From contig OY970322.1 in NCBI GenBank assembly GCA_963716945.1, positions 630,001 through 662,000 on the forward strand: a stretch of 32,000 bases of DNA. Direction: 5' to 3'. Position 1 is the stretch's first letter; every line of letters begins with the position of its first letter. The position numbers and the translations under genes are program-made. The notes under the pieces are model-generated. The model saw nothing but the letters and a program-made list of their open reading frames with translations. It was not told the DNA's origin and made no database searches. The DNA comes from Candidatus Saccharimonadota bacterium (GTDB taxonomy: Bacteria > Patescibacteriota > Saccharimonadia > Saccharimonadales > UBA4665). Below, in pieces: positions 708 through 15,300 of this stretch.

Positions 708-736
708 AATTTAACATAAAAACGCATGTTTGTATA
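708..736 (-). promoter_or_regulatory. Putative promoter, a diverged copy of the cassette promoter module, here with a ~28-nt SD-containing leader
   Basis: The minus strand reads TATACA-17 nt-TAAATT (CTATACAAACATGCGTTTTTATGTTAAATTAT). This aligns with the module at 9466-9500 (CTATACAAATACCACGTTTTGTGGTATTTTAT). Confidence 0.35.
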
Positions 737-775
737 GTTTTTACATCTCTGTTGATGCTCCTCAATATCACGGTT

Positions 776-3588: not shown

Positions 3589-4290
3589 TTAACCGTCTAG
3601 CGTCGGAATATGTATCTTTCGCGCAGGCTCAGGCCCCACGTCGTGCAGAGGTTCAGAGCCGACATATATTATCTGTACGTCCGGGCCTACAAATCTCTGG
3701 TCAGCGCCTGCTTGATAGGCCTCTTGGTTACGTATAACGCCAGGCCAAGTCTCAGGTCTTTCGGTTGGCAAAGCTCCTCCGTCCAGCTCTTGCAGGACTT
3801 GTGTGGCACGAATAATTCTAGCCAGGTCTTGCTCGAAACGGCTCGCCGGCCTTGCAGCTATTATGTCTCCGCGTAACGTTGACCAAGGCATATCATAGCT
3901 GCCATCGGTAGGGTCTGAAGGGTCGGCATCTCCGCTAGAGTTATGCCGCTGAAAGCCTGTATTAAAGGTCACGGACACCCGGGGTTCTCGGTAGGAACCG
4001 CCTTGAAATCTAGGCCTCATCTCAATAAAGAAAAAATGGTCTTCGGTCTTGCCGCTGCCATCAAAGAAAACCGCCCCATTTAAAACAGCGGTATCCAATT
4101 CATCCGGTTGCAACGGTTCTCCCGTGCGGATGGATGATAAGACTTGCGCTAGCTCTACGGCAGCGTCAATCTGTCTGTTAATTTTATCGCCGTGTGTTGC
4201 AACGACATCAAGGCCCCAGTTATCTATGAACAAACTAGGTTGGGTATCGGTGCGAAAATCATTCCGGGACTCTATAGCTGCGGCTGACAT
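3589..4290 (-). CDS. Hypothetical protein (233 aa)
   Basis: ORF 3589..4326 in the track. I place the start at ATG 4290 (MSAAAIESRND...), which sits 7 nt after a -10 box. Confidence 0.65.
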   Translation of the reverse strand: MSAAAIESRNDFRTDTQPSLFIDNWGLDVVATHGDKINRQIDAAVELAQVLSSIRTGEPLQPDELDTAVLNGAVFFDGSGKTEDHFFFIEMRPRFQGGSYREPRVSVTFNTGFQRHNSSGDADPSDPTDGSYDMPWSTLRGDIIAARPASRFEQDLARIIRATQVLQELDGGALPTERPETWPGVIRNQEAYQAGADQRFVGPDVQIIYVGSEPLHDVGPEPARKIHIPTLDG

Positions 4291-5527: not shown

Positions 5528-5977
5528 TTAACGGCCGATACTTATCATTTGGCCGGCCCCCCACTCGTTTAGGCCGTCTGCCGGCGCTACGCCCATAACA
5601 CTCTCTATACTTCCCGACGGGCCTCTTAATAAAGGCCGAAGCTCCGGTTCGGCTAAGCTTACGTCACCCCCAAGAACCATGGACCAAAATACCTCTTGAG
5701 CCAAACGCGCCCCGTGCATTACCTCGCCCAAGGCGCTTGGGGCTGTCCTTTCGGTATAGGTCTCACCCATTACCGGCACCTGTAGGTAAATTATATCTCG
5801 GAGGAGGGCCTCGCCAATGTAGGGAGGTGAAGTGTCTGCGTAGGCCGGTGCTATGAACCGTACTCCTTCATCCGGCCTTAACCAAGTATCGCTTTGAGCA
5901 TGCAAGCCTGCAGCCGCTTCGGCCGCATCATGCGTAAAGCCTTCTGGCGGGGAAATGCCCTGGTAAGAAACTCCCAT
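5528..5977 (-). CDS. Hypothetical protein (149 aa)
   Basis: ORF with ATG 5977 placed 6 nt after an extended -10 box. No family recognised. Confidence 0.65.
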   Translation of the reverse strand: MGVSYQGISPPEGFTHDAAEAAAGLHAQSDTWLRPDEGVRFIAPAYADTSPPYIGEALLRDIIYLQVPVMGETYTERTAPSALGEVMHGARLAQEVFWSMVLGGDVSLAEPELRPLLRGPSGSIESVMGVAPADGLNEWGAGQMISIGR

Positions 5978-6657: not shown

Positions 6658-7155
6658 TTAGCTTTGGATTTCCCGTAGCAGCTTATCGCCCACGTTATTC
6701 GTAAAGCCAAGCTCCCGGTATAAGGGTATTAAAGTATTGGTTGGCGCTAATTCCGTAGCTAATCGCTTAGCCCCAAGGGCATCGGCAATCCGAACCCTTT
6801 CCCGAACTATAGTTCTGGCTAAGCCTCTATGCCTATGCCGAGGACTTATCATTAAGTGGCTCAATTCGCCAAAGACGGTTATATGTTTCAACGTTAACAG
6901 CCCTATACCGACAAGCTCGTTCTCGTTTGAGGTTCTTACCCCTACTTCAATAATATGATCCCCATAGATATCAGGACTTCCAGAGGGCCAACTGGCGCGA
7001 TCAAGCCCAGAGCTAGATGGTCCGTTCACTTCCTCGTCGAGTGTACGCAGCTCTTCTCTTCCGGCTTCTGCACCGCTTGCAAAATAGTAACCGACCGGCA
7101 GCTCCAGCCGGTTATAGGTAACTGCAACCTCCGGGCTGATAGCAAGCTGCGCCAT
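6658..7155 (-). CDS. GNAT family N-acetyltransferase
   Basis: The acetyl-CoA binding motif A is MISPRHRHRGLARTIVRERVRIADALG, followed by LYRELGF. I place the start at ATG 7155 (MAQLAISPEV), directly downstream of a promoter module. Confidence 0.85.
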   Translation of the reverse strand: MAQLAISPEVAVTYNRLELPVGYYFASGAEAGREELRTLDEEVNGPSSSGLDRASWPSGSPDIYGDHIIEVGVRTSNENELVGIGLLTLKHITVFGELSHLMISPRHRHRGLARTIVRERVRIADALGAKRLATELAPTNTLIPLYRELGFTNNVGDKLLREIQS

Positions 7156-7194
7156 AATAAACAAAATAATACCACAAAAAGCATTATTTGCATA
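7156..7194 (-). promoter_or_regulatory. Cassette promoter module
   Basis: The minus strand reads TATGCAAATAATGCTTTTTGTGGTATTATTTTGTTTATT-ATG. The TATTTT at 7168-7163 lies 7 nt before ATG 7155. Confidence 0.5.
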
Positions 7195-7205
7195 GGGCTT
7201 ATGCT

Positions 7206-7229
7206 TGGCTCCCGGACTGGATTTGAACA
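7206..7229 (-). repeat. Displaced copy of the tRNA-Asn 3' end (T-arm plus acceptor plus CCA), att-like direct repeat
   Basis: TGTTCAAATCCAGTCCGGGAGCCA aligns with the tRNA 3' end GGTTCGAATCCAGTCCCCGGAGCCA (12878-12854) at 21 of 25 positions, in the same orientation. There is no matching tRNA 5' half upstream. Confidence 0.7.
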
Positions 7230-7299
7230 AATTAAAATAGGCCTGAAATTGGTAAAGAGCTCAACAAGCCATAGGTACATGGCATTATAAGCCAAAATA

Positions 7300-7314
7300 T
7301 GCTATAATATATTT
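7300..7314 (+). promoter_or_regulatory. Putative leaderless promoter (extended -10)
   Basis: TGcTATAAT (hexamer at 7303-7308), then 6 nt to ATG 7315. No SD. Confidence 0.45.
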
Positions 7315-8655
7315 ATGTACCGCCCAGACTTTACAGACTTTGCCCCATATCAGGGTGCGCCTAATGCCGCCGTCGTATCAGGTTTCATTAATTATGGTGC
7401 CAACCACGAGGCAAAAACTGTCCTCAGCGACGTTTATTTGCAGCAGCCAGGCGAGCTGTTGCGCCCAGTAACGGTAGCTAAAACCGTTATCGCCTGGCAA
7501 GGACCTGAGCCCGCGTGGAAGATACCCATTAAAGACGTTATCCAATACAGTGAGCGCAGTTTGGCAAAAGGCGGTATCGTCGAGCCTGGTTTAATCGATG
7601 GTGAACGCGGTCATCAAGTTACTGCCTGGGCAGCAATGGCAAGCCCGGCTGATTTACTGGTGCAGCGGGCCATGGTTGGCTTTTTCAGTAACTGGAGTCT
7701 CGAGTCACCCGAACAATCGGTGCAAAAACTTTATAGGGTTGGCGGTGGTGATCGTGCAAAAGCGCCACTAGTCAGACACCGGCTATATGATTTGCTCTGG
7801 AATAGCACTACTGGTTACTCAATTGAAGGCCTCAACGAAGTCATGGTAAGAGAAGGCCATCACCCAACAACACTGGCAAGGAAGCTTGAGGGTCTGGACC
7901 AGGAAGGGATTATAGAAGTTCGGTCGAAAAGCATCGGTTACAATCCTGTCATGAAAGTCACCGATAGCGAATACCGCCACGTAGCGATCGGCTTCTTAGA
8001 CACTAGCTTGGAAACGCAAGCAGCATATGCTGCCGCTCAAGAACTTGGCATCGACGCCACCATAACTGTTGACGACTTTGTTAATAAGGCTATGGAACAA
8101 ATGCCCGGTGCTGACCCAGTAGTATTACGCAAGTATATAATCGGCAGTTTCAGCGAGGGAACCAATCACTTCCCTGGCTTGCAGCCTGTCGATAGGTTGG
8201 GCATACCGATTTCAGATCTCAGTGTTGTCGAGCTATCTCCTGACGTGCGTCAGGCTGTTGGCGAGCTTGTAATTGGCGTGGGCAAAATTTTAGCCGGCGA
8301 AGGTCTGCTTCCTTATGTTAAGGAAGCGCAAAGAATTATGGGTAACCCCTCGCAAGTGCGCGAGCTAATTGCTAAAGCCGGTAGGTTTTCGGCTGTAAAG
8401 GCTGGGCACTTTCATGGCAGTGAGCGGCTGACTAATCAAATGAGAAGCATTTTGGAAACCGGGCCACAGACTGCTGAGAGTATGAGAGCCGAACTAGTAG
8501 ATCGGTACGGCCGCATGATCGGTCATGAGAGAATACACGCCATTCTGAATGAGCTTGTTAGTACCGAAAACATAGGTACTGCCTATGAACCTGTCCATCC
8601 TCATTCGGCTATCACGCGTAAGGTCTACAAAATGCAGGCTCAGCAGGAAAGCTAG
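7315..8655 (+). CDS. Hypothetical protein (446 aa) with two winged-helix-like segments
   Basis: Long clean ORF. The segments RHRLYDLLWNSTTGYSIEGLNEVMVREGHHPTTLARKLEGLDQEGIIEVRS and QMRSILETGPQTAESMRAELVDRYGRMIGHERIHAILNELV resemble wHTH layouts by eye. No catalytic motif recognised. Confidence 0.75.
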   Translation: MYRPDFTDFAPYQGAPNAAVVSGFINYGANHEAKTVLSDVYLQQPGELLRPVTVAKTVIAWQGPEPAWKIPIKDVIQYSERSLAKGGIVEPGLIDGERGHQVTAWAAMASPADLLVQRAMVGFFSNWSLESPEQSVQKLYRVGGGDRAKAPLVRHRLYDLLWNSTTGYSIEGLNEVMVREGHHPTTLARKLEGLDQEGIIEVRSKSIGYNPVMKVTDSEYRHVAIGFLDTSLETQAAYAAAQELGIDATITVDDFVNKAMEQMPGADPVVLRKYIIGSFSEGTNHFPGLQPVDRLGIPISDLSVVELSPDVRQAVGELVIGVGKILAGEGLLPYVKEAQRIMGNPSQVRELIAKAGRFSAVKAGHFHGSERLTNQMRSILETGPQTAESMRAELVDRYGRMIGHERIHAILNELVSTENIGTAYEPVHPHSAITRKVYKMQAQQES

Positions 8656-8704
8656 GTAGAAGAGCCGGCCACGAAACCTGGCCTGTCTCTGTTGGTGCTT
8701 GGTC

Positions 8705-8734
8705 TGGCTGCCTTTAGTGGACGCACTTCGCAGC
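8705..8734 (-). repeat. Cassette 3' element copy
   Basis: The minus strand reads GCTGCGAAGTGCGTCCACTAAAGGCAGCCA and starts 20 nt after the stop of 8755..9465. It aligns with the copies at 12354-12325, 11919-11889 and 10178-10150. Confidence 0.5.
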
Positions 8735-8754
8735 TTACGTCATGAGTAACCGGA

Positions 8755-9465
8755 TTATCGTGAGGCGATTATCAGTAGACTACCGGCATGACCGCCTAAT
8801 TTTCTTATTATGTCTTCGTGCCTTTCGGCGTTAGTATCGTCGGGCTCGCCAGCTTCGATATCAAATTGAGCCTCGCGCGAAGCGAAGCGCGGCCTTAAGC
8901 CGGCCATCTTTAACATCTCGGCTATGGCTTGGGCATTTCTATCGTAATCAAAAATTACGGCCCGGCCGTCCGGAGCAAGCAGCCTGGCGACTTCGTTGGT
9001 CATAACCTGCTCGTCATGATTATGTTCGCAGCTCGGAGCGGATGATTTATCGTATACGCGGGAAATGTAAACTTCGTTAGCGATCGCGCCGGGCAGGCCA
9101 TACCTTAAATTTTCCTCGGAGGGGTCGTCTAAGTTTCTGCCAAATGACCTTTCCCGTTGGAGGGTTATATTTTCGCCGGCTCTCTGACTTCGCAATCTCT
9201 CAAAAGCGACTTTCGCTCCGAGTTCGTAGTATCCGAAGCTGAAGTTCTCCAGACCTATATAGCGACTTAGCCCGCCGAAATTACGGTTTAAACCGTTGGG
9301 ATGCATGCCGGGACCTATTTCAACCAGGCACCAGACCGGTGCGGCTACTCTGTATTCGGCGTACTCGAATGGATCGATGAGATCGCTTGGATTTATCTCA
9401 AGCGCTTGCCTAATTCCTAATTCCTTGTCGACCGGATTCAAAGCCGCAACCCCAGGCGTTGACAT
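8755..9465 (-). CDS. Probable class I SAM-dependent methyltransferase
   Basis: LVEIGPGMHPNG is motif-I-like, and VARLLAPDGRAVIFDY fits the later MTase strand. I place the start at ATG 9465 (MSTPGVAAL), 6 nt after the module -10. Confidence 0.65.
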   Translation of the reverse strand: MSTPGVAALNPVDKELGIRQALEINPSDLIDPFEYAEYRVAAPVWCLVEIGPGMHPNGLNRNFGGLSRYIGLENFSFGYYELGAKVAFERLRSQRAGENITLQRERSFGRNLDDPSEENLRYGLPGAIANEVYISRVYDKSSAPSCEHNHDEQVMTNEVARLLAPDGRAVIFDYDRNAQAIAEMLKMAGLRPRFASREAQFDIEAGEPDDTNAERHEDIIRKLGGHAGSLLIIASR

Positions 9466-9500
9466 AAACATAAAATACCACAAAACGTGGTATTTGTATA
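9466..9500 (-). promoter_or_regulatory. Cassette promoter module with a perfect 9-bp inverted repeat
   Basis: The minus strand reads TATACAAATACCACGTTTTGTGGTATTTTATGTTT-ATG. The arms AAATACCAC (9495-9487) and GTGGTATTT (9481-9473) are exact reverse complements separated by 5 nt. Confidence 0.55.
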
Positions 9501-9525
9501 GTGATTATGCTTGGCTCAAGATATA

Positions 9526-9561
9526 GGTCTGGGCTAGCTGCCTTTACGTCCCTGGCGCGCC
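9526..9561 (-). repeat. Cassette 3' element, variant copy
   Basis: The minus strand reads GGCGCGCCAGGGACGTAAAGGCAGCTAGCCCAGACC, downstream of the stop of 9581..10042. It shares TAAAGGCAGC..CAGACC with the 8705-8734 copy. Confidence 0.4.
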
Positions 9562-9580
9562 TGATGATTACGTATAGGTA

Positions 9581-10042
9581 CTATTGTACCGGCGGCCAGA
9601 CTTGTTCGGGGTCTCCTTCAATTCGAGCCATAAGTACTTGGTCCATTCCTTGATAGGTTATGCAAGTACTACCGTGAATCGGAAAAGTCGTAAGTCGATC
9701 CCAAGGCATATCAGCCAACTCCGCCGCTCTAGCCAGATGCTCATCCGGACCATAGTCTGATTGTATAAATTCCGCCTTCCATCCTATTTCTCGAGCTACA
9801 CTCTCCAGCGCTTTAGCAAAACCGCCGATTTTAGGCGTAATAAATTCCAAGTTTCTAAAAGCGGCAACAGCAAGCGATGTTTTTATAAGTTCGGCGTTTG
9901 GTAGCCTATCTTCTCCGTTGTCAGTATGGATTTCCAGGATTGCCTTGGCCCACCAAAGTCCTATAGCCTCATATACATCCTTGGCTTCCCCTACGGGCTT
10001 AAGGACTTCTCGTCCGCCTTCAAATCTTGCATCCGCAGCCAT
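9581..10042 (-). CDS. Hypothetical protein (153 aa)
   Basis: ORF 9581..10051 in the track. I place the start at ATG 10042 (MAADARFEGG), downstream of a consensus promoter. Confidence 0.7.
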   Translation of the reverse strand: MAADARFEGGREVLKPVGEAKDVYEAIGLWWAKAILEIHTDNGEDRLPNAELIKTSLAVAAFRNLEFITPKIGGFAKALESVAREIGWKAEFIQSDYGPDEHLARAAELADMPWDRLTTFPIHGSTCITYQGMDQVLMARIEGDPEQVWPPVQ

Positions 10043-10080
10043 AATTATCATATTATATAAAAAACTTCAATAATTGTCAA
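10043..10080 (-). promoter_or_regulatory. Consensus sigma70-type promoter
   Basis: Minus strand: TTGACA (10080-10075), 17 nt, TATAAT (10057-10052), then 9 nt to ATG 10042. Confidence 0.6.
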
Positions 10081-10149
10081 TAATTAAAGGGTAAGATAAA
10101 AAATCCGGCAGCGTGAATGCGGACCGGGTGTTTCGTCGAGTTTGCGATG

Positions 10150-10178
10150 CGGCTCCCCCAGTGGGTGAGCTGCGCAAT
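10150..10178 (-). repeat. Cassette 3' element copy
   Basis: The minus strand reads ATTGCGCAGCTCACCCACTGGGGGAGCCG and starts 3 nt after the stop of 10182..11048. It can form the hairpin GCTCACCC-ACT-GGGGGAGC with one mismatch. Confidence 0.5.
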
Positions 10179-10181
10179 AAC

Positions 10182-11048
10182 TTAGTAAATGGACGGGATT
10201 GCGCGGGCCTGCTCGATTCTATCGATCGCTACTTCGGTACTACCGTCCCAGAAGGCTAGGAGCATTGGCATAATGCTGCCACGCCATCTAACTCCTAGGC
10301 GAAGTGTTGGACAGCCGCTGCCCGAGCTGCATTCTTTGGCCTTTTGTTTGGCCCAGGGCGTTAGATCTACGCTTTCTTGGCGGGCATCTAATACTAAATG
10401 CTCGGGATCTATGACATCATTTGCTCGAGATTCACTCATCAGCCTAGAAGGTATGCCGACAAACTTGCTAAATTCAGGCCGGCCGGGTCTTCCCTCGACA
10501 GTGTCATTTATCATCGCCAGACGAGATATTAATCTGCTGCTATTCCTGACAATTTGTTCATTGGCCGACTGCTCGTAACCACTGTCTTGTAGAAGAAAAT
10601 TAAATATGCTCCGTATAGCTAAATTGGCATCCTGCACGGCTGCACTAGCATTGCGCAGGCAGCCTCTCGCGATGCGGACAGCCTGCTGCTGCGTCGCATC
10701 AATGGAGCCTGCCATGGCCTCCCGGAACGGATTAGTCAATCCATTATCAATTGGGTCCGGAAACCGTCCAAAATAGTAATAATCCCTGCCCATCTCCATC
10801 CAGATAGGTACATATTGGTTCGCAGCTGCACTAGTAGAGCGGCTGAAAACATGATCACTTTTAGACACCGACCTAGCAAGCTCTGACGCAACAGCATAAC
10901 CTAGGGGAGCTAACATGTACGTATCAAAGTCTGGGTAAAGCCGGCCTATTGCATGAGGAGTAGACTTGGCATCTGCTATTCTTTGTTCTAGGTCGTTAGA
11001 AAAAGCTTCTGAGTCAGCAGCTTCTTGCATAAACGCTTCGAAAGCCAT
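10182..11048 (-). CDS. Hypothetical protein (288 aa)
   Basis: ORF 10182..11066 in the track. I place the start at ATG 11048 (MAFEAFMQEAADSE), 6 nt after the module -10. Confidence 0.7.
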   Translation of the reverse strand: MAFEAFMQEAADSEAFSNDLEQRIADAKSTPHAIGRLYPDFDTYMLAPLGYAVASELARSVSKSDHVFSRSTSAAANQYVPIWMEMGRDYYYFGRFPDPIDNGLTNPFREAMAGSIDATQQQAVRIARGCLRNASAAVQDANLAIRSIFNFLLQDSGYEQSANEQIVRNSSRLISRLAMINDTVEGRPGRPEFSKFVGIPSRLMSESRANDVIDPEHLVLDARQESVDLTPWAKQKAKECSSGSGCPTLRLGVRWRGSIMPMLLAFWDGSTEVAIDRIEQARAIPSIY

Positions 11049-11083
11049 AAAAATAAAATACAACAAAAAGCAGTATTTGACAA
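11049..11083 (-). promoter_or_regulatory. Cassette promoter module
   Basis: Minus strand: TTGTCA (11083-11078), 17 nt, TATTTT (11060-11055), then 6 nt to the ATG. It is preceded by AGCC and then GGGAGCCA (11095-11088). Confidence 0.55.
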
Positions 11084-11230
11084 GGCTTGGCTCCCATGAC
11101 GTTGATCAATTGGGACCAGATTAAGTCAGAAATAATAGAGATGTGTCGGGTAGTTAAAACTTCACAGCAGTTTAATATTAAAGAAGCTGAGGGCCGTGGC
11201 TAGAATCCGGGTAAGTATTCAGAGCCGAAG

Positions 11231-11812
11231 TTAAGAACCTACAACTTTACCCGTGCAAATGTTTCTATATTGGCTGGGATTAAAAGTCTGTCCATATTGC
11301 GGGAAATACCATTCAACAGCGTTATAGGACGGTTTGCCCTGGCACATACCTAGATTGAACGCTACGACAGTTGCTTGTTCTGTAGTGCCATCGGCCACAT
11401 CTTCATTACCCATTACGTAGTCAGTCATTCCTGTGCCTGTAGCCTGTGTGCCTCCCCATGACTGCCAGGTTATATTAGTGACTATGCCAGTGGGGTCACC
11501 TCCATTATTGATTATTTGAGGCTTCACGGTGCCGTAACCTTGCTGACCCGTGTCAGGCGGCCCCCATAGCTGCCCAAGTACAGGACTTGGCGTGTTAGTT
11601 GTTGTGTCTGAGCCCTTCTCTGCAGTATTAGAATTGTTGCTGGCAGTAGCCCGCTTTTTGCTTGTAGTTGTAGCGGTTACTGAAATAGGACTTGTTTTGC
11701 GGTCTTTTTGATAAACGTACCAGCCAGCGCCTATTATAAGAACAAGCAGAGCTATTATTGATAAAATGCTAACAACTCCGAAACCTTCTTGTTTACTGTG
11801 ATGTTTGCCCAT
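11231..11812 (-). CDS. Membrane-anchored exported protein (193 aa), unknown function
   Basis: It has an N-terminal TM helix (GFGVVSILSIIALLVLIIGAGWYVY) followed by a Thr/Ser-rich linker. A -10 TACTAT (11825-11820) lies 7 nt before ATG 11812. Confidence 0.75.
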   Translation of the reverse strand: MGKHHSKQEGFGVVSILSIIALLVLIIGAGWYVYQKDRKTSPISVTATTTSKKRATASNNSNTAEKGSDTTTNTPSPVLGQLWGPPDTGQQGYGTVKPQIINNGGDPTGIVTNITWQSWGGTQATGTGMTDYVMGNEDVADGTTEQATVVAFNLGMCQGKPSYNAVEWYFPQYGQTFNPSQYRNICTGKVVGS

Positions 11813-11888
11813 GTCATTTATAGTATCAAACGACCATACTGCAATTGAACCGAATAAATTCCTAGAGATTAATAGAGGCGAGCTTTCC

Positions 11889-11919
11889 TGACTCCCTCCT
11901 AATGGACGAGCTGCGCAAC
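11889..11919 (-). repeat. Cassette 3' element copy
   Basis: The minus strand reads GTTGCGCAGCTCGTCCATTAGGAGGGAGTCA and starts 22 nt after the stop of 11942..12280. Confidence 0.5.
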
Positions 11920-11941
11920 TTTTGTGAAGCAGAATTCATTA

Positions 11942-12280
11942 TTAACTTACATCTGGTGAATGAGGAGGTTCAGGTGCATCAGCAGCATCGAGCAAACGAT
12001 TAAGCTGGTTAATACTTTCTTGTGAACTGAGTCGCTCGATTGCCTCAATGGCAGATTCACCGGTTTGCAAATCTGTTTTTCTATATGGACAAGCCAAGCA
12101 GCCTAGAGTTAAAGCGAGTGTGGCCCTTTGATAATCCGCACTCATTTCGTTATAAGTTATTTCAAAGCCGGTAGGGTATTTGGCACAGACCATATTACCG
12201 TTTGCATTAGAGTATGGTCTTTGTACTACGGCACGTACTTGACAAGTGTCAAACGCTTTTTGAGAGCGACTTTTTTTCAC
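11942..12280 (-). CDS. Hypothetical protein (about 112 aa). The start is ambiguous: GTG 12280, or the conserved ATG 12284, which is out of frame.
   Basis: The ORF body is in the track (11942..12301). The module-positioned ATG 12284 is in the +1 frame relative to the body, across an A7 run (12277-12271). GTG 12280 is the first in-frame start after the promoter. Confidence 0.55.
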   Translation of the reverse strand: MKKSRSQKAFDTCQVRAVVQRPYSNANGNMVCAKYPTGFEITYNEMSADYQRATLALTLGCLACPYRKTDLQTGESAIEAIERLSSQESINQLNRLLDAADAPEPPHSPDVS

Positions 12281-12284
12281 GCAT

Positions 12285-12320
12285 AAAACTAAAAATATCA
12301 CAAAAAGTGATATTTGACAA
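12285..12320 (-). promoter_or_regulatory. Cassette promoter module with a perfect 9-bp inverted repeat
   Basis: Minus strand: TTGTCA (12320-12315), 17 nt, TGTGa-TATTTT (12297-12292), then 7 nt to ATG 12284. The arms AAATATCAC (12315-12307) and GTGATATTT (12301-12293) are exact reverse complements. Confidence 0.55.
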
Positions 12321-12324
12321 GGTA

Positions 12325-12354
12325 TGGCTCCACCTAGTGGACGAGTCTCGCAAC
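12325..12354 (-). repeat. Cassette 3' element copy ending in tRNA-like GGAGCCA
   Basis: The minus strand reads GTTGCGAGACTCGTCCACTAGGTGGAGCCA and starts 10 nt after the stop of 12365..12814. The next promoter module follows after 4 nt. It contains the hairpin TCCAC-TAG-GTGGA. Confidence 0.55.
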
Positions 12355-12364
12355 TGCCAAGTTT

Positions 12365-12814
12365 CTAATATTCTGCTGTTTCATCCTGCGGGAATACCGC
12401 CTTCAATCTTTGAAGAAGAAACCATGCTCGTCTGTCGTCAATGAAATCAGAAAAAGTGCTATTGCAATCCTCATCCATTTCGTCATAGTGCACCCTTCCG
12501 TCATCTTTCAGCGTGATGTGTCCTTCGGCTATTTCATCGTCATGCAGCGAAAGCTGGGCTATGTCGTGATTATTGTAATCCAAAGCCTCGGACGTCTCGG
12601 TCATTAGATAAAATGCATAACGTTTCTGCTCGGGAGCAAATGCCAATCCCGCCAATAGTTTAGGCCGTAACGGCTCAAGTAATATATCAGCTATTCTAGT
12701 GCCAAAGTCTCCCGTGCGGGTTTGGGGATGCTCAAGTGCATTAAATAGGACGAAGTTTCTAAGATCCTGAAGATAATCGCCTTCAAAACGGGGAGCTTCA
12801 TAGACATCCGGCAT
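12365..12814 (-). CDS. Hypothetical acidic protein (149 aa)
   Basis: ORF with ATG 12814, 6 nt after the module -10. It is the first gene after the tRNA. Confidence 0.7.
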   Translation of the reverse strand: MPDVYEAPRFEGDYLQDLRNFVLFNALEHPQTRTGDFGTRIADILLEPLRPKLLAGLAFAPEQKRYAFYLMTETSEALDYNNHDIAQLSLHDDEIAEGHITLKDDGRVHYDEMDEDCNSTFSDFIDDRRAWFLLQRLKAVFPQDETAEY

Positions 12815-12849
12815 AAAACTAAAATACCATAAAAAGTGATATTTGGCAA
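12815..12849 (-). promoter_or_regulatory. Cassette promoter module abutting the tRNA
   Basis: Minus strand: TTGCCA (12849-12844), 17 nt, TATGg-TATTTT (12826-12821), then 6 nt to ATG 12814. The -35 box begins only 4 nt after the tRNA CCA end. Confidence 0.55.
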
Positions 12850-12853
12850 TTTA

Positions 12854-12928
12854 TGGCTCCGGGGACTGGATTCGAACCAGCGACCTAGGCGTTAACAGCG
12901 CCCCGCTCTACCGCTGAGCTACCCCGGA
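12854..12928 (-). tRNA. tRNA-Asn (anticodon GTT), 75 nt, CCA encoded
   Basis: I folded it by hand. The parts are: acceptor TCCGGGG/CCCCGGA, D-arm GCTC-AGCGGTA-GAGC, anticodon arm GGGCG-CTGTTAA-CGCCT, variable AGGTC, T-arm GCTGG-TTCGAAT-CCAGT, discriminator G, then CCA. Confidence 0.93.
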
Positions 12929-12975: not shown

Positions 12976-14235
12976 ATGCTCTTGCTGAAGACCGCGCGGT
13001 TTGTTGGTACAATAATTAATGCTATGCAGGATGACGCGCCGAATCCGCCGCCAGATGAACCGACCGTTGAGCCCGTCGACGAACCGACAGACGAAACCGG
13101 CAAATCCGCGGTTACGCCCTTGCCCGGGCCGCAAGAAACGCTACCGGTTCCGGCGCCCAAACCGCCGCGCAACTGGAAGCGATGGCGCAAAGTAGCGGGC
13201 CTCGTAGTTCTGATTATTATCGTCGCGGTTGGGGCCTGGCTGTGGGGCCGGCATGGCGGCCCGCCCAAAAAAGCCGCTTCGACGGCCAGCCAAGCCGTAA
13301 CGATGCCTAAGAAAACTGCGGCGGCTGCGGCCAAAGTCCAAGGCGTCCAGCTCGACCCGAACAAGGATTACGGCAACAAATACGCCAACGGCATCCTGCC
13401 CGTCGGTGACGGCAAATACGTTACGTCCGGCCCTAAGCAGGGCTATGTCTATGCCTGCAGCCAGTATGCCCAGAACCTGTCCGGCGGCCAGGGCGGCGCC
13501 AGTACCCGCGGGCCGTGGTTCACGGATAATAACACCGAGTATAACGTCAACGAGAAGCTGCATGTCGAGGGCAGCGTCATGTGGCAGGCCAGCTTTTCGG
13601 ACGTCCTGTCCGGCGGTACGCGGACTATCATTACTAATGATTTGCCCGACCACCCGACCGGTATTTTCCCGATTATGACGACCGACCCGGCCTACGCTTA
13701 TGACCACAACCCCAATACCATTAAGGGCCAGACCCTGACCTACGTCCTCAATGCCGACCCGGTTTACGGTTCGCCCAGCTGTATGGGCGGCGAATCGGGC
13801 ATCATGCTGACCGGCGTGGCGCTGTTTAACGCCTTTGATGCCGGCGGGCGTGACGCCGGGGCCTGGGAAGTCCAGGACGCGTGCGACGGGCATCCGCAAA
13901 CGGACGGCATTTACCACTACCATACCTTGAGCGCTTGCATCAAAGACACCAGTGTCCGGACCGTCATCGGCTATGCCCTCGACGGCTTCCCGATTACCGG
14001 GCCGGAGGTCGGGCCGAATAATATCCTGACGACGTCGGACCTCGACGAGTGCCATGGCCTGACCAGCCAGATTAACCTCGACGGCAAGCTGGTTACGATG
14101 TACCACTATGTCATGACGGAGGATTTTCCGTACTCCGTCAGCTGTTTCCGCGGTACGGCTATCCAGCCGCCTGACCTGGCGCTAGCCCGGCCAAGCCAGT
14201 CCGGCCAAGGGCAAAAGGCGCCGCCTAAGCCTTAG
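12976..14235 (+). CDS. YHYH-motif protein, membrane-anchored (alternative start ATG 13024)
   Basis: It has a Pro-rich N-terminus, a TM helix (VAGLVVLIIIVAVGAWLW), and then the signature DGIYHYHTLSAC plus a second MYHYVMT. A possible TTGAAC-17-TTAATA promoter lies at 12936-12964. Confidence 0.8.
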   Translation: MLLLKTARFVGTIINAMQDDAPNPPPDEPTVEPVDEPTDETGKSAVTPLPGPQETLPVPAPKPPRNWKRWRKVAGLVVLIIIVAVGAWLWGRHGGPPKKAASTASQAVTMPKKTAAAAAKVQGVQLDPNKDYGNKYANGILPVGDGKYVTSGPKQGYVYACSQYAQNLSGGQGGASTRGPWFTDNNTEYNVNEKLHVEGSVMWQASFSDVLSGGTRTIITNDLPDHPTGIFPIMTTDPAYAYDHNPNTIKGQTLTYVLNADPVYGSPSCMGGESGIMLTGVALFNAFDAGGRDAGAWEVQDACDGHPQTDGIYHYHTLSACIKDTSVRTVIGYALDGFPITGPEVGPNNILTTSDLDECHGLTSQINLDGKLVTMYHYVMTEDFPYSVSCFRGTAIQPPDLALARPSQSGQGQKAPPKP

Positions 14236-14696: not shown

Positions 14697-14760
14697 AACG
14701 CTTATTGTAACTGAGGAGCCGATTATAGACAAGAGGTATATTTAATTATATAATAATTAT

Positions 14761-15300
14761 GTGAACCGTATATTCGCTGAGACCGCAGACTATGCCCGGG
14801 CCGAGTTAATCGATGTTATGTCAGGCGTAGTAACGCGGTTTCCTAGCCTGCGCCATATAAGCGAGAATCTTGATTCGCCTTCTCACGTTTCGGCGCGCTG
14901 GCGTCATTCATCAGTCCCGGCCGCGGCGATTACGAACTGGGTAAGCTACGCGGGTATTGCTGAGTCCGGCCGGCGACCCAAGGACTATCCGGAAGCCGCT
15001 ATACTGGGGATTTCGAAAGAAGAAGTCGATGCTTACGCTGCTGAACATGGCGGCCAGCACGCCGTCGCGTATGTCCTGGGGAGCCGGGTCATTATAGGTA
15101 CCATGCTAGAAGATGAAATCTTCGGCGTCAGTGAGGATGGCGAGCAATACAGAGTGGCGATGGGTATCGGCAAGGGTGTCCTCCAGGCTACGGCCGGGCT
15201 GTACCTACCTCATAAAAGGCTGTGGGTACCATCAGCGCCGATTGAGGATATGGGACGAATGCCGGCTGACCAGGTTCCAGTCACCGTTCCCTTCCTTTAA
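14761..15300 (+). CDS. Hypothetical protein (179 aa)
   Basis: The ORF has a GTG start 6 nt after TATAAT (14749-14754). No family recognised. It ends 4 nt from the convergent hydrolase gene. Confidence 0.55.
   Translation: MNRIFAETADYARAELIDVMSGVVTRFPSLRHISENLDSPSHVSARWRHSSVPAAAITNWVSYAGIAESGRRPKDYPEAAILGISKEEVDAYAAEHGGQHAVAYVLGSRVIIGTMLEDEIFGVSEDGEQYRVAMGIGKGVLQATAGLYLPHKRLWVPSAPIEDMGRMPADQVPVTVPFL

Follow-up and report, generated by a model that had tools for sequence, protein, structure and literature searches.

A 24-nt stretch of a Candidatus Saccharimonadota genome (assembly GCA_963716945.1, contig OY970322.1) is a genuine copy, by now decayed, of the tRNA-Asn 3' end, most probably left behind by integration. 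It lies at positions 7206-7229, minus strand, of the 32,000 nt analysed here (contig positions 630,001 to 662,000, called the window throughout). The 3' flank of the intact tRNA-Asn gene in the same window is an accretion array with at least seven junction scars, built as a stack of many insertions and not as a single island. These findings are carried by the repeat itself, by the anatomy of the junctions lying between it and the tRNA, by the recurrence and strict polarity of such junctions in related genomes, by precise pairs of empty and occupied sites among those relatives, and by the age of the scar. We consider it highly probable that the 24-mer is a tRNA-Asn end displaced by site-specific insertion at a recurrently used tRNA-Asn 3' flank, with older insertions pushed outward as newer ones arrived.

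Read on the minus strand, positions 7229-7206 give TGTTCAAATCCAGTCCGGGAGCCA and the tRNA-Asn 3' end at 12878-12854 gives GGTTCGAATCCAGTCCCCGGAGCCA. The two agree at 21 of the 25 positions of an alignment that has a single 1-nt gap, and since both stand on the minus strand the repeat is direct; the copy extends from the T-loop to the CCA. A 14-nt core, TTCRAATCCAGTCC, occurs exactly twice in the window, once in the tRNA end and once in the fragment, and even with up to two mismatches tolerated only 0.21 matches to it would be expected in the window. A fuzzy search with the 25-mer, allowing at most four edits, likewise returned the tRNA and the fragment only, and 60 first-order Markov shuffles searched with the same tolerance gave no match. 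The decay comprises two substitutions together with an indel and a substitution in the acceptor strand. When the fragment is read with a canonical T-loop (TTCAAAT) its acceptor strand (CCGGGA) is short by one base, so no functional tRNA end is matched exactly and the fragment is best described as a decayed copy. Similarity between fragment and tRNA runs on beyond the CCA into a promoter module.

The direct repeat described in the initial annotation, which was made from the sequence alone, is thus confirmed, and so is its reading as a displaced 3' fragment. ARAGORN found a single tRNA in the window, tRNA-Asn(GTT), and no full, foldable tRNA spanning 7206-7290; a permissive Rfam scan of 6900-7500 gave no tRNA match; and alignment upstream of the fragment revealed no D-arm, anticodon arm or other 5' part of a tRNA, in line with the absence of a complementary 5' acceptor strand noted earlier. 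A second tRNA or a pseudogene retaining a cloverleaf at 7206-7290 is refuted by these three results. The promoter module that had been placed after the fragment, at 7194-7156, is correctly located.

Two recurrent parts organise the DNA between the tRNA and the fragment: the promoter module, whose numbered copies are called M1 to M5, and a 31-nt element, called P, that ends in GGAGCCA. In order from the tRNA, with open reading frame abbreviated to ORF, the features are as follows.

12854 to 12928, minus strand: intact tRNA-Asn(GTT) with encoded CCA, head of the array and integration target (ARAGORN, sequence).
12815 to 12853, minus strand: promoter module M1 directly 3' of the CCA, with TTGCCA, a 17-nt spacer, TGgTATTTT and 6 nt to a leaderless ATG at 12814 (sigma-70-like site with TG at 12849-12821).
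12365 to 12814, minus strand: ORF of cassette 1, 149 aa, an ORFan (same gene in a Logan contig).
12325 to 12355, minus strand: P element AGTTGCGAGACTCGTCCACTAGGTGGAGCCA, junction of cassettes 1 and 2, with module M2 immediately after it (nhmmer E = 1.4e-5).
12284 to 12324, minus strand: promoter module M2, with the perfect 9-nt palindrome AAATATCAC-TTTTT-GTGATATTT (sequence).
11942 to 12280, minus strand: ORF of cassette 2, in frame from a GTG at 12280 (83 aa only according to the Logan gene caller).
11889 to 11920, minus strand: P element AGTTGCGCAGCTCGTCCATTAGGAGGGAGTCA, its GGAGCCA end decayed (nhmmer E = 8.7e-6).
11231 to 11812, minus strand: ORF of cassette 3, 193 aa, with an N-terminal membrane segment and a low-complexity region, under its own promoter of non-M type.
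11088 to 11094, minus strand: GGAGCCA junction with a degenerate left arm, directly 5' of M3.
11049 to 11087, minus strand: promoter module M3, leaderless ATG at 11048.
10182 to 11048, minus strand: ORF of cassette 4, 288 aa, an ORFan.
10151 to 10177, minus strand: weak P-like remnant just past the stop of the 288-aa ORF, tentative (nhmmer E = 0.12).
9581 to 10042, minus strand: ORF of cassette 5, 153 aa, with its own TTGACA-N17-TATAAT promoter.
9472 to 9518, minus strand: junction of TGAGCCA, AGCATAATCAC (native-type tRNA flank) and module M4, leaderless ATG at 9471.
8755 to 9471, minus strand: ORF of cassette 6, 238 aa, an ORFan.
8705 to 8735, minus strand: P element AGCTGCGAAGTGCGTCCACTAAAGGCAGCCA, terminal junction of the P-type array (nhmmer E = 4.1e-6).
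8656 to 8704, minus strand: native-type tRNA-Asn 3' flank with terminator hairpin (GACCAAGCACCAACAGAG...GGCCAGGTTTCGTGGCC, hairpin at 8667-8683).
7315 to 8655, plus strand: 446-aa ORFan that converges on the array and diverges from the fragment.
7206 to 7229, minus strand: the T-type fragment reported here (sequence, chance tests; equivalent in locus L191 at 5901-5920).
7156 to 7205, minus strand: AGCATAAGCCC (native-type flank) and promoter module M5, leaderless ATG at 7155.
6658 to 7155, minus strand: GNAT acetyltransferase, 165 aa, driven by M5 (Pfam Acetyltransf_1, 2.3e-8).

Positions 12853-8705 thus hold six unrelated single-ORF cassettes, all on one strand, which form a unidirectional array at one fixed site. 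Cassette 1 (12853-12325) consists of M1, the 149-aa ORF and P; cassette 2 (12324-11889) of M2, a possibly frameshifted ORF and P; cassette 3 (11888-11088) of the 193-aa ORF and GGAGCCA; cassette 4 (11087-10151) of M3, the 288-aa ORF and the weak P; cassette 5 (10150-9512) of the 153-aa ORF and TGAGCCA; and cassette 6 (9511-8705) of the AGCATAATCAC flank, M4, the 238-aa ORF and P. The frameshift in cassette 2 is possible relative to the module ATG (12284-12282), which opens a frame of 11 codons only. Counted together, the window contains one T-type junction and three to six junctions of the P or GAGCCA type. A P model built from 21 metagenomic copies and run with nhmmer has three matches in the window, all on the minus strand with E values from 4e-6 to 1.4e-5, and none to the reported fragment. 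Comparison of the cassette proteins with one another found no paralogy of the kind that tandem duplication of cassettes would leave, and apart from one sub-threshold match neither the six cassette ORFs nor the 446-aa gene has an accepted Pfam or NCBIfam family. The att-like scar of the initial annotation stands, but the 5.6 kb are not one island with an att copy at either end: at least six further junctions, of another type, lie inside them together with a terminator flank of native type.

The composition of the interval is foreign to its surroundings. GC content is 0.43-0.51 across about 7000-12900 as against 0.54-0.63 right of the tRNA, where core genes are found (YHYH, smpB, a GH42-like gene and the ATP synthase operon); further left, as far as about 2900, it keeps to about 0.48-0.54. 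Judged by relatives of the YHYH protein, the host is one of the soil-type Candidatus Saccharimonadales.

The promoter module has the consensus TTGnCA, a 17-nt spacer containing AAATAyCAC-N5-GTGrTATTT, an extended -10 of TGnTATTTT and 6-8 nt to the ATG. Six copies occur in the window, against an expectation of 0.01. Without exception they stand on the minus strand and to the left of the tRNA, and a promoter scan flags three of the six. Five are preceded at near-fixed distance by (G)GAGCCA, namely at the tRNA end (12854), at 12325, 11088 and 9512, and at the reported fragment. The module was found neither in the 19 kb right of the tRNA nor in about 170 kb of other Saccharimonadales loci, and on this ground it was rejected as a generic promoter of the lineage; matches in viral contigs were single ones in AT-rich DNA and are read as chance. 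It stands directly after the CCA in at least 13 metagenomic tRNA-Asn loci, and the ORFs that it drives are mutually unrelated: matches identified a luciferase-like enzyme, a GNAT and a NUDIX protein among them, and the remainder are ORFans. The spacer is a perfect 9-nt palindrome in two window copies (9473-9495 and 12292-12316), that of M4 being AAATACCAC-GTTTT-GTGGTATTT, with a compensating T/A versus C/G change between them, and a terminator scan flags 9495-9473 as a hairpin with a T-run; such a palindrome could act as an operator or a recombinase site, or could form a hairpin. A leaderless arrangement, with a TATAAT-like -10 placed 6-8 nt before the ATG and no Shine-Dalgarno sequence, was seen in many core and island genes across the window (for example 14722-14761, 10052-10080 and 7279-7314), and from their sequence many genes of this genome appear to be leaderless.

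We then compared the window with related loci, designated by L numbers. A metagenome scan with the last 30 nt of tRNA-Asn returned at least 120 loci, of which 93 form the subset with at least 500 nt of downstream sequence. In most of the loci listed smpB lies directly upstream of tRNA-Asn, and what follows downstream is highly variable. T-type fragments, defined as stretches of 18 nt or more of the tRNA 3' end repeated in direct orientation, occur downstream of the intact gene in 17 of the 93, compared with two matches upstream (both strands counted) and one downstream on the opposite strand. The P element reads AGTTGCGAAG-NNN-GTCCACTAG-N-GGGAGCCA, and its polarity is strict: 21 copies were found among the at least 120 loci listed, every one in tRNA orientation and within the 362 kb downstream of tRNA-Asn, and none in the 327 kb upstream. 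It lies 10-30 nt past an ORF, and next to it comes either a promoter module or a terminator flank of native type. The simplest case is L171, in which the tRNA is followed by a module, a 146-aa ORF, P, and the native flank AGCATAAGCAC with a terminator. Module-ORF-P units form arrays in L123 and L186, and L171 is likewise unidirectional; P joined directly to native terminator flanks, with no module, also occurs. In 24 copies inspected by eye P was conserved in sequence and showed no conserved pairing, leaving a conserved hairpin unsupported, and IMG/VR viral contigs contained no P element.

The flanks that follow the scars in the window are themselves informative. They match the flanks of live tRNA-Asn genes in relatives, namely AGCATAAGCAC, which is the commonest immediate flank of live tRNA-Asn among the loci listed, and GACCAAGCACC with a terminator, and this argues that the scars still carry former neighbours of the tRNA. 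The flank at 8656-8704 is homologous to sequence right after the live tRNA-Asn in L117, L131, L132 and L163, while the junction at 9472-9518 is 84% identical to 7168-7211 and has the same flank as live tRNA-Asn in L123, L073, L098 and L107. A homolog of the cassette 5 ORF, 36% identical, lies at +193 to +597 after tRNA-Asn in L116.

Insertion can be read from pairs of empty and occupied sites. In the pair L085/L168 a 524-nt insert ending in P sits exactly between the CCA and the flank. Three further pairs carry inserts placed exactly after the CCA, of 3,257 nt in L073/L107 and 6,477 nt in L108/L150, both ending in a T fragment, and of 5,264 nt in L131/L187, where the fragment shares the TTCAAAT T-loop variant of the window. 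These pairs indicate that T fragments are old tRNA ends displaced by insertions. Together with the foreign composition, the ORFan content and the fragments at 17 of 93 related loci, they bear out the integration footprint at tRNA-Asn that was claimed at the outset.

The same loci show other kinds of change at this site. A group I intron (Rfam Intron_gpI, 51-87 bits) occupies the anticodon loop of tRNA-Asn in about 30 of 120 loci (L071-L190; for example L161 1683-1968, L176 712-993 and L092 2157-2312), so ARAGORN misses such genes; the tRNA-Asn of the window has no intron. Mini-inserts of about 120-300 nt stand right after the tRNA-Asn terminator in L086, L089, L090, L092, L135, L139, L176, L177, L185 and L189. 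They carry the 5' half of the T-arm twice, once inverted and once direct, end in an 18-nt repeat, ATCCAGTCCCCGGAGCCA, are found in tandem in L135, L166 and L185, and gave no Rfam match in the five loci scanned (L092, L139, L176, L177 and L189). L145 has two tRNA-Asn copies in inverted orientation about 3.3 kb apart (715-744, plus strand; 4005-4034, minus strand) with mirror-image modules and GAGCCA junctions between them, an arrangement that points to an inversion or a duplication with the array at its centre.

The age of the scar can be judged from the 446-aa ORFan beside it. Only seven homologs were found, all of them near a tRNA gene or a fragment of tRNA-Asn. The closest, 85% identical, is in L191 (6140-7477), where the block is kept as a GAGCCA and terminator flank, the 446-aa gene, a divergent T fragment (CCGGTTCGAATCCAGTCCCCGGAACTA), a promoter module and a leaderless gene; there the leaderless gene after the module is a methyltransferase, followed by two further P junctions. 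Since the block of fragment and 446-aa gene is common to the window and L191, the scar predates the split of the two genomes, which fits its decay and agrees with the earlier suggestion, one of two, that the copy is old. ARAGORN found no tRNA in L191, where tRNA-Asn fragments flank the 446-aa gene instead; the homologs in L005 (3353-4654) and L192-L194 (about 10001-11320) lie about 0.3-2 kb from a tRNA gene (Gln, Arg or Ser). The 446-aa protein was considered as a recombinase and rejected: neither Pfam nor NCBIfam assigns it to a family, the PDB offers no credible relative, its AlphaFold (AF2) model has a pLDDT of 44 and is too poor for a fold search, and it bears no similarity to the distal genes of the serine-recombinase element in L196.

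Recombinases are found at tRNA-Asn in relatives. A large serine recombinase (LSR; Resolvase, Recombinase and Zn_ribbon domains) overlaps the tRNA-Asn end in convergent orientation in 12 of the 93 loci; in L080, L084, L099, L108, L143, L161, L164 and L170 its ORF extends from about -41/-65 to +1400/+1600 as counted from the tRNA end. The stop codon lies within the tRNA, so the tRNA 3' end, read in antisense, supplies the tail of the protein, WLRGLDSNQRP. Very large and conserved, the family has 1,605 matches, and the best 120 of these, of about 545 aa, are at least 71% identical. In L196, beside tRNA-Asn and smpB, the LSR (10001-11638) is grouped with an AAA_25 protein and a zinc-ribbon protein of DnaG type. 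A tyrosine integrase is present in L147 (Pfam Phage_integrase, 6e-27) beside a 41-nt fragment reaching from the anticodon loop to the CCA, and has a homolog in L094; motif and phmmer scans of the at least 120 loci found tyrosine integrases in these two only and none in the arrays. A 41-nt copy of the same extent, 95% identical to tRNA-Asn with 35 nt exact, lies at 7078-7118 of L060, a 37-kb predicted viral contig (IMGVR_UViG_3300033074_000763) that has no tRNA there and encodes a LysM lysin, an SLT protein and an N6/N4 methylase. It looks like an attP, and no integrase was seen in the 10 kb of this contig examined. Other viral 18-mer matches were mostly chance coding matches or real phage tRNAs, leaving L060 as the sole true fragment derived from tRNA-Asn.

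How the window came to its present form may be outlined in three steps. The tRNA-Asn would originally have been followed by AGCATAAGCCC, promoter M5 and the GNAT gene. An element now reduced to the terminator flank and the 446-aa gene would then have integrated with a crossover in the T-loop; inserted into or at the tRNA-Asn end, the incoming DNA would have supplied a new 3' end and displaced the old one. About six small cassettes, most with their own promoter and leaderless ORF and all ending in ...GGAGCCA or a variant of it, three of them within the conserved 31-nt P element, would have been inserted successively, each exactly after ...GGAGCCA. The enzyme behind both the T-type duplication and the insertions at the CCA end is most likely a recombinase acting in trans.

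Several observations weigh against displacement by site-specific insertion and should be considered together. None of the ORFs in the interval or in the rest of the 32 kb has a recombinase domain, and none was found in the matching Logan contig over the 16 kb that lead from the tRNA to PhoU-PstSCAB; no close LSR ortholog from the 1.10-Mb source contig is among the best 120 of the 1,605 matches (at least 71% identity). No direct repeat of the tRNA end surrounds the LSR element of L196, and serine recombinases neither need nor create long repeats. The exact empty site, tRNA-Asn followed directly by M5 and the GNAT gene, was not found among the at least 120 loci listed. The left arm that is conserved in L191 and L150 can be aligned only ambiguously to that of the fragment in the window. 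Moreover, the distal scar (21 of 25) is better preserved than the proximal junctions, and the model can accommodate this only on condition that P-type junctions at no time contained more than about 7-18 nt resembling the tRNA.

With these difficulties in view, one could suppose that (G)GAGCCA and the module together are a portable promoter or regulatory cassette spread by duplication, gene conversion or homologous recombination, the tRNA-like bases having been carried along from a founding copy after tRNA-Asn, with no site-specific integration at all. This would account for similarity that extends past the CCA into the promoter, for the near-fixed distance of (G)GAGCCA from five of the six window modules, for the quality of the module as a sigma-70 promoter with an extended -10 and a palindromic, operator-like spacer, and for the lack of a recombinase in the window. 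However, the 31-nt P element upstream of GGAGCCA is conserved in many genomes and also occurs without the module, the empty and occupied pairs show whole cassettes inserted exactly after the CCA, the fragment goes on into the T-arm for 17 nt that a promoter unit would not need, and the strict polarity and the confinement to the 3' side of the tRNA point to targeted insertion; we regard this explanation as unlikely. Somewhat less probable again is that the fragment is the remnant of a tandemly duplicated tRNA-Asn whose 5' two-thirds were deleted, a pseudogene and not the footprint of a mobile element. Its orientation and the native-type flank AGCATAAGCCC, as found after live tRNA-Asn in relatives, would suit such an origin, and duplication of the whole tRNA-Asn at this locus is seen in L145; yet no trace of a D-arm or anticodon arm lies upstream, the DNA between the copies is compositionally foreign and unrelated, and in the three occupied pair members ending in a T fragment similarity starts in or just 5' of the T-loop, the usual pattern of att duplication. 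Chance resemblance of a GC-rich 24-mer to a tRNA end, for which only its short length speaks, is refuted by the core count, by the shuffles and by conservation of the homologous fragment in L191, and with many analogous fragments in relatives, nearly all in one orientation, we give it practically no weight. Displacement of the tRNA-Asn end by recurrent site-specific insertion is therefore the reading that we prefer.

The surroundings of the array call for a few further observations. A 419-aa gene with a YHYH domain (12976-14235, plus strand) stands between smpB and tRNA-Asn, a position at which most relatives have smpB directly upstream, so the 5' side of the tRNA in the window differs from relatives too. 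A synteny search based on YHYH was uninformative, as the tRNA-Asn of relatives does not lie beside this gene. There is no Phage_integrase match in the window, and the upstream neighbours of the tRNA are the YHYH protein and SmpB, with no intI. In the Logan sample ERR11523672 the assembly breaks within tRNA-Asn from both sides, L001 ending in the D-arm (window position about 12902) and L023 and L024 starting in the T-arm (about 12882), which could reflect strain heterogeneity at the site. GC-rich repeats with a 12-nt period (CCGCCACCGCTTCCGCC...) at the left edge of the window, 36-149, probably encode a low-complexity protein segment.

Taken alone the 24-nt repeat is ordinary, a classical att repeat of a tRNA island, and accretion islands linked to tRNA genes are a known kind. 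Islands that lie between direct repeats of a tRNA 3' end include the P4-type integrase islands and the Yersinia high-pathogenicity island at asn tRNA genes, and sublocation classes within tRNA genes were reportedly set out by Williams in 2002. The window resembles these islands in having an intact tRNA at one end, a direct partial copy from T-loop to CCA at the other, foreign composition and accessory or ORFan cargo. Unlike them, its interval has no integrase and holds further junctions of another type, and its scar is decayed and heads a further promoter-gene unit. LSR elements of the phage-integrase type lie against the same tRNA-Asn end in the 12 relatives described above and not in the window, and LSR integration normally leaves no long direct repeat. 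Integron arrays offer another comparison, being made of short, mostly single-ORF unrelated cassettes at one insertion point, newest nearest, each ending in a recombination site. The window shares with them a unidirectional series of unrelated single-ORF cassettes at a fixed point, each ending in a conserved site-like element. It differs in lacking intI and in using a tRNA end and not attI as the insertion point; P, by inspection, is conserved in sequence and not as an attC-type hairpin, and in place of reliance on Pc about every second cassette has its own promoter and leaderless start.

In overall logic the array works like the tycheposon islands of Prochlorococcus, which lie beside tRNA genes, where successive integrations at the same site push older elements outward and leave partial tRNAs and remnants scattered; their integrases are tyrosine recombinases with a minority of large serine recombinases, and their host has a streamlined small genome without other mobile elements (bioRxiv 10.1101/2020.12.28.424599). 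Repeated integration at one tRNA, with partial tRNAs and remnants, is common to both systems. Tycheposons, however, bring their own integrase and often a replication module (bioRxiv 10.1101/2020.12.28.424599), whereas the units of the window are single-ORF cassettes of 0.4-0.9 kb with a shared promoter and 31-nt end and neither integrase nor replication module; an element with integrase and primase/helicase was seen only in relatives (LSR, AAA_25 and DnaG zinc ribbon in L196). The array belongs neither with tycheposons nor with integrons, because it has no element-borne integrase, no intI and no attC-type site, and carries its promoters on its cassettes. Our literature search found no description of tRNA islands or cassettes in Saccharibacteria, and recurrent promoter-ORF-P cassettes inserted at a CCA end without a recombinase of their own may be a new variant.

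More speculatively, Saccharimonadales might carry an integron-like cassette system, detached from its recombinase and anchored on tRNA-Asn, in which units of module, leaderless ORF and P are captured successively at the CCA by an enzyme acting in trans. We advance this tentatively, as a possibility somewhat short of even. The enzyme could be the highly conserved LSR that overlaps tRNA-Asn in many relatives.

For annotation there is a practical warning, in that what is taken for one 'island' enclosed by a tRNA and its repeat can have been piled up by many separate events. The ultra-small Saccharibacteria live as epibionts on genomes of only about 1 Mb, and how they gain genes is little understood. 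The window and about 40% of the 93 related loci mark the tRNA-Asn 3' end next to smpB as a main entry point for foreign genes in soil Saccharimonadales, with at least three junction types in use there: anticodon-loop, T-loop and CCA-end. If the cassettes are truly mobile they would amount to a compact gene-capture system with built-in expression, and their ORFan cargo would be a defined place to seek functions in host interaction or defence. An integron-like system, if it is borne out, would give these epibionts a hypervariable, self-expressed array of accessory genes within a genome of about 1 Mb.

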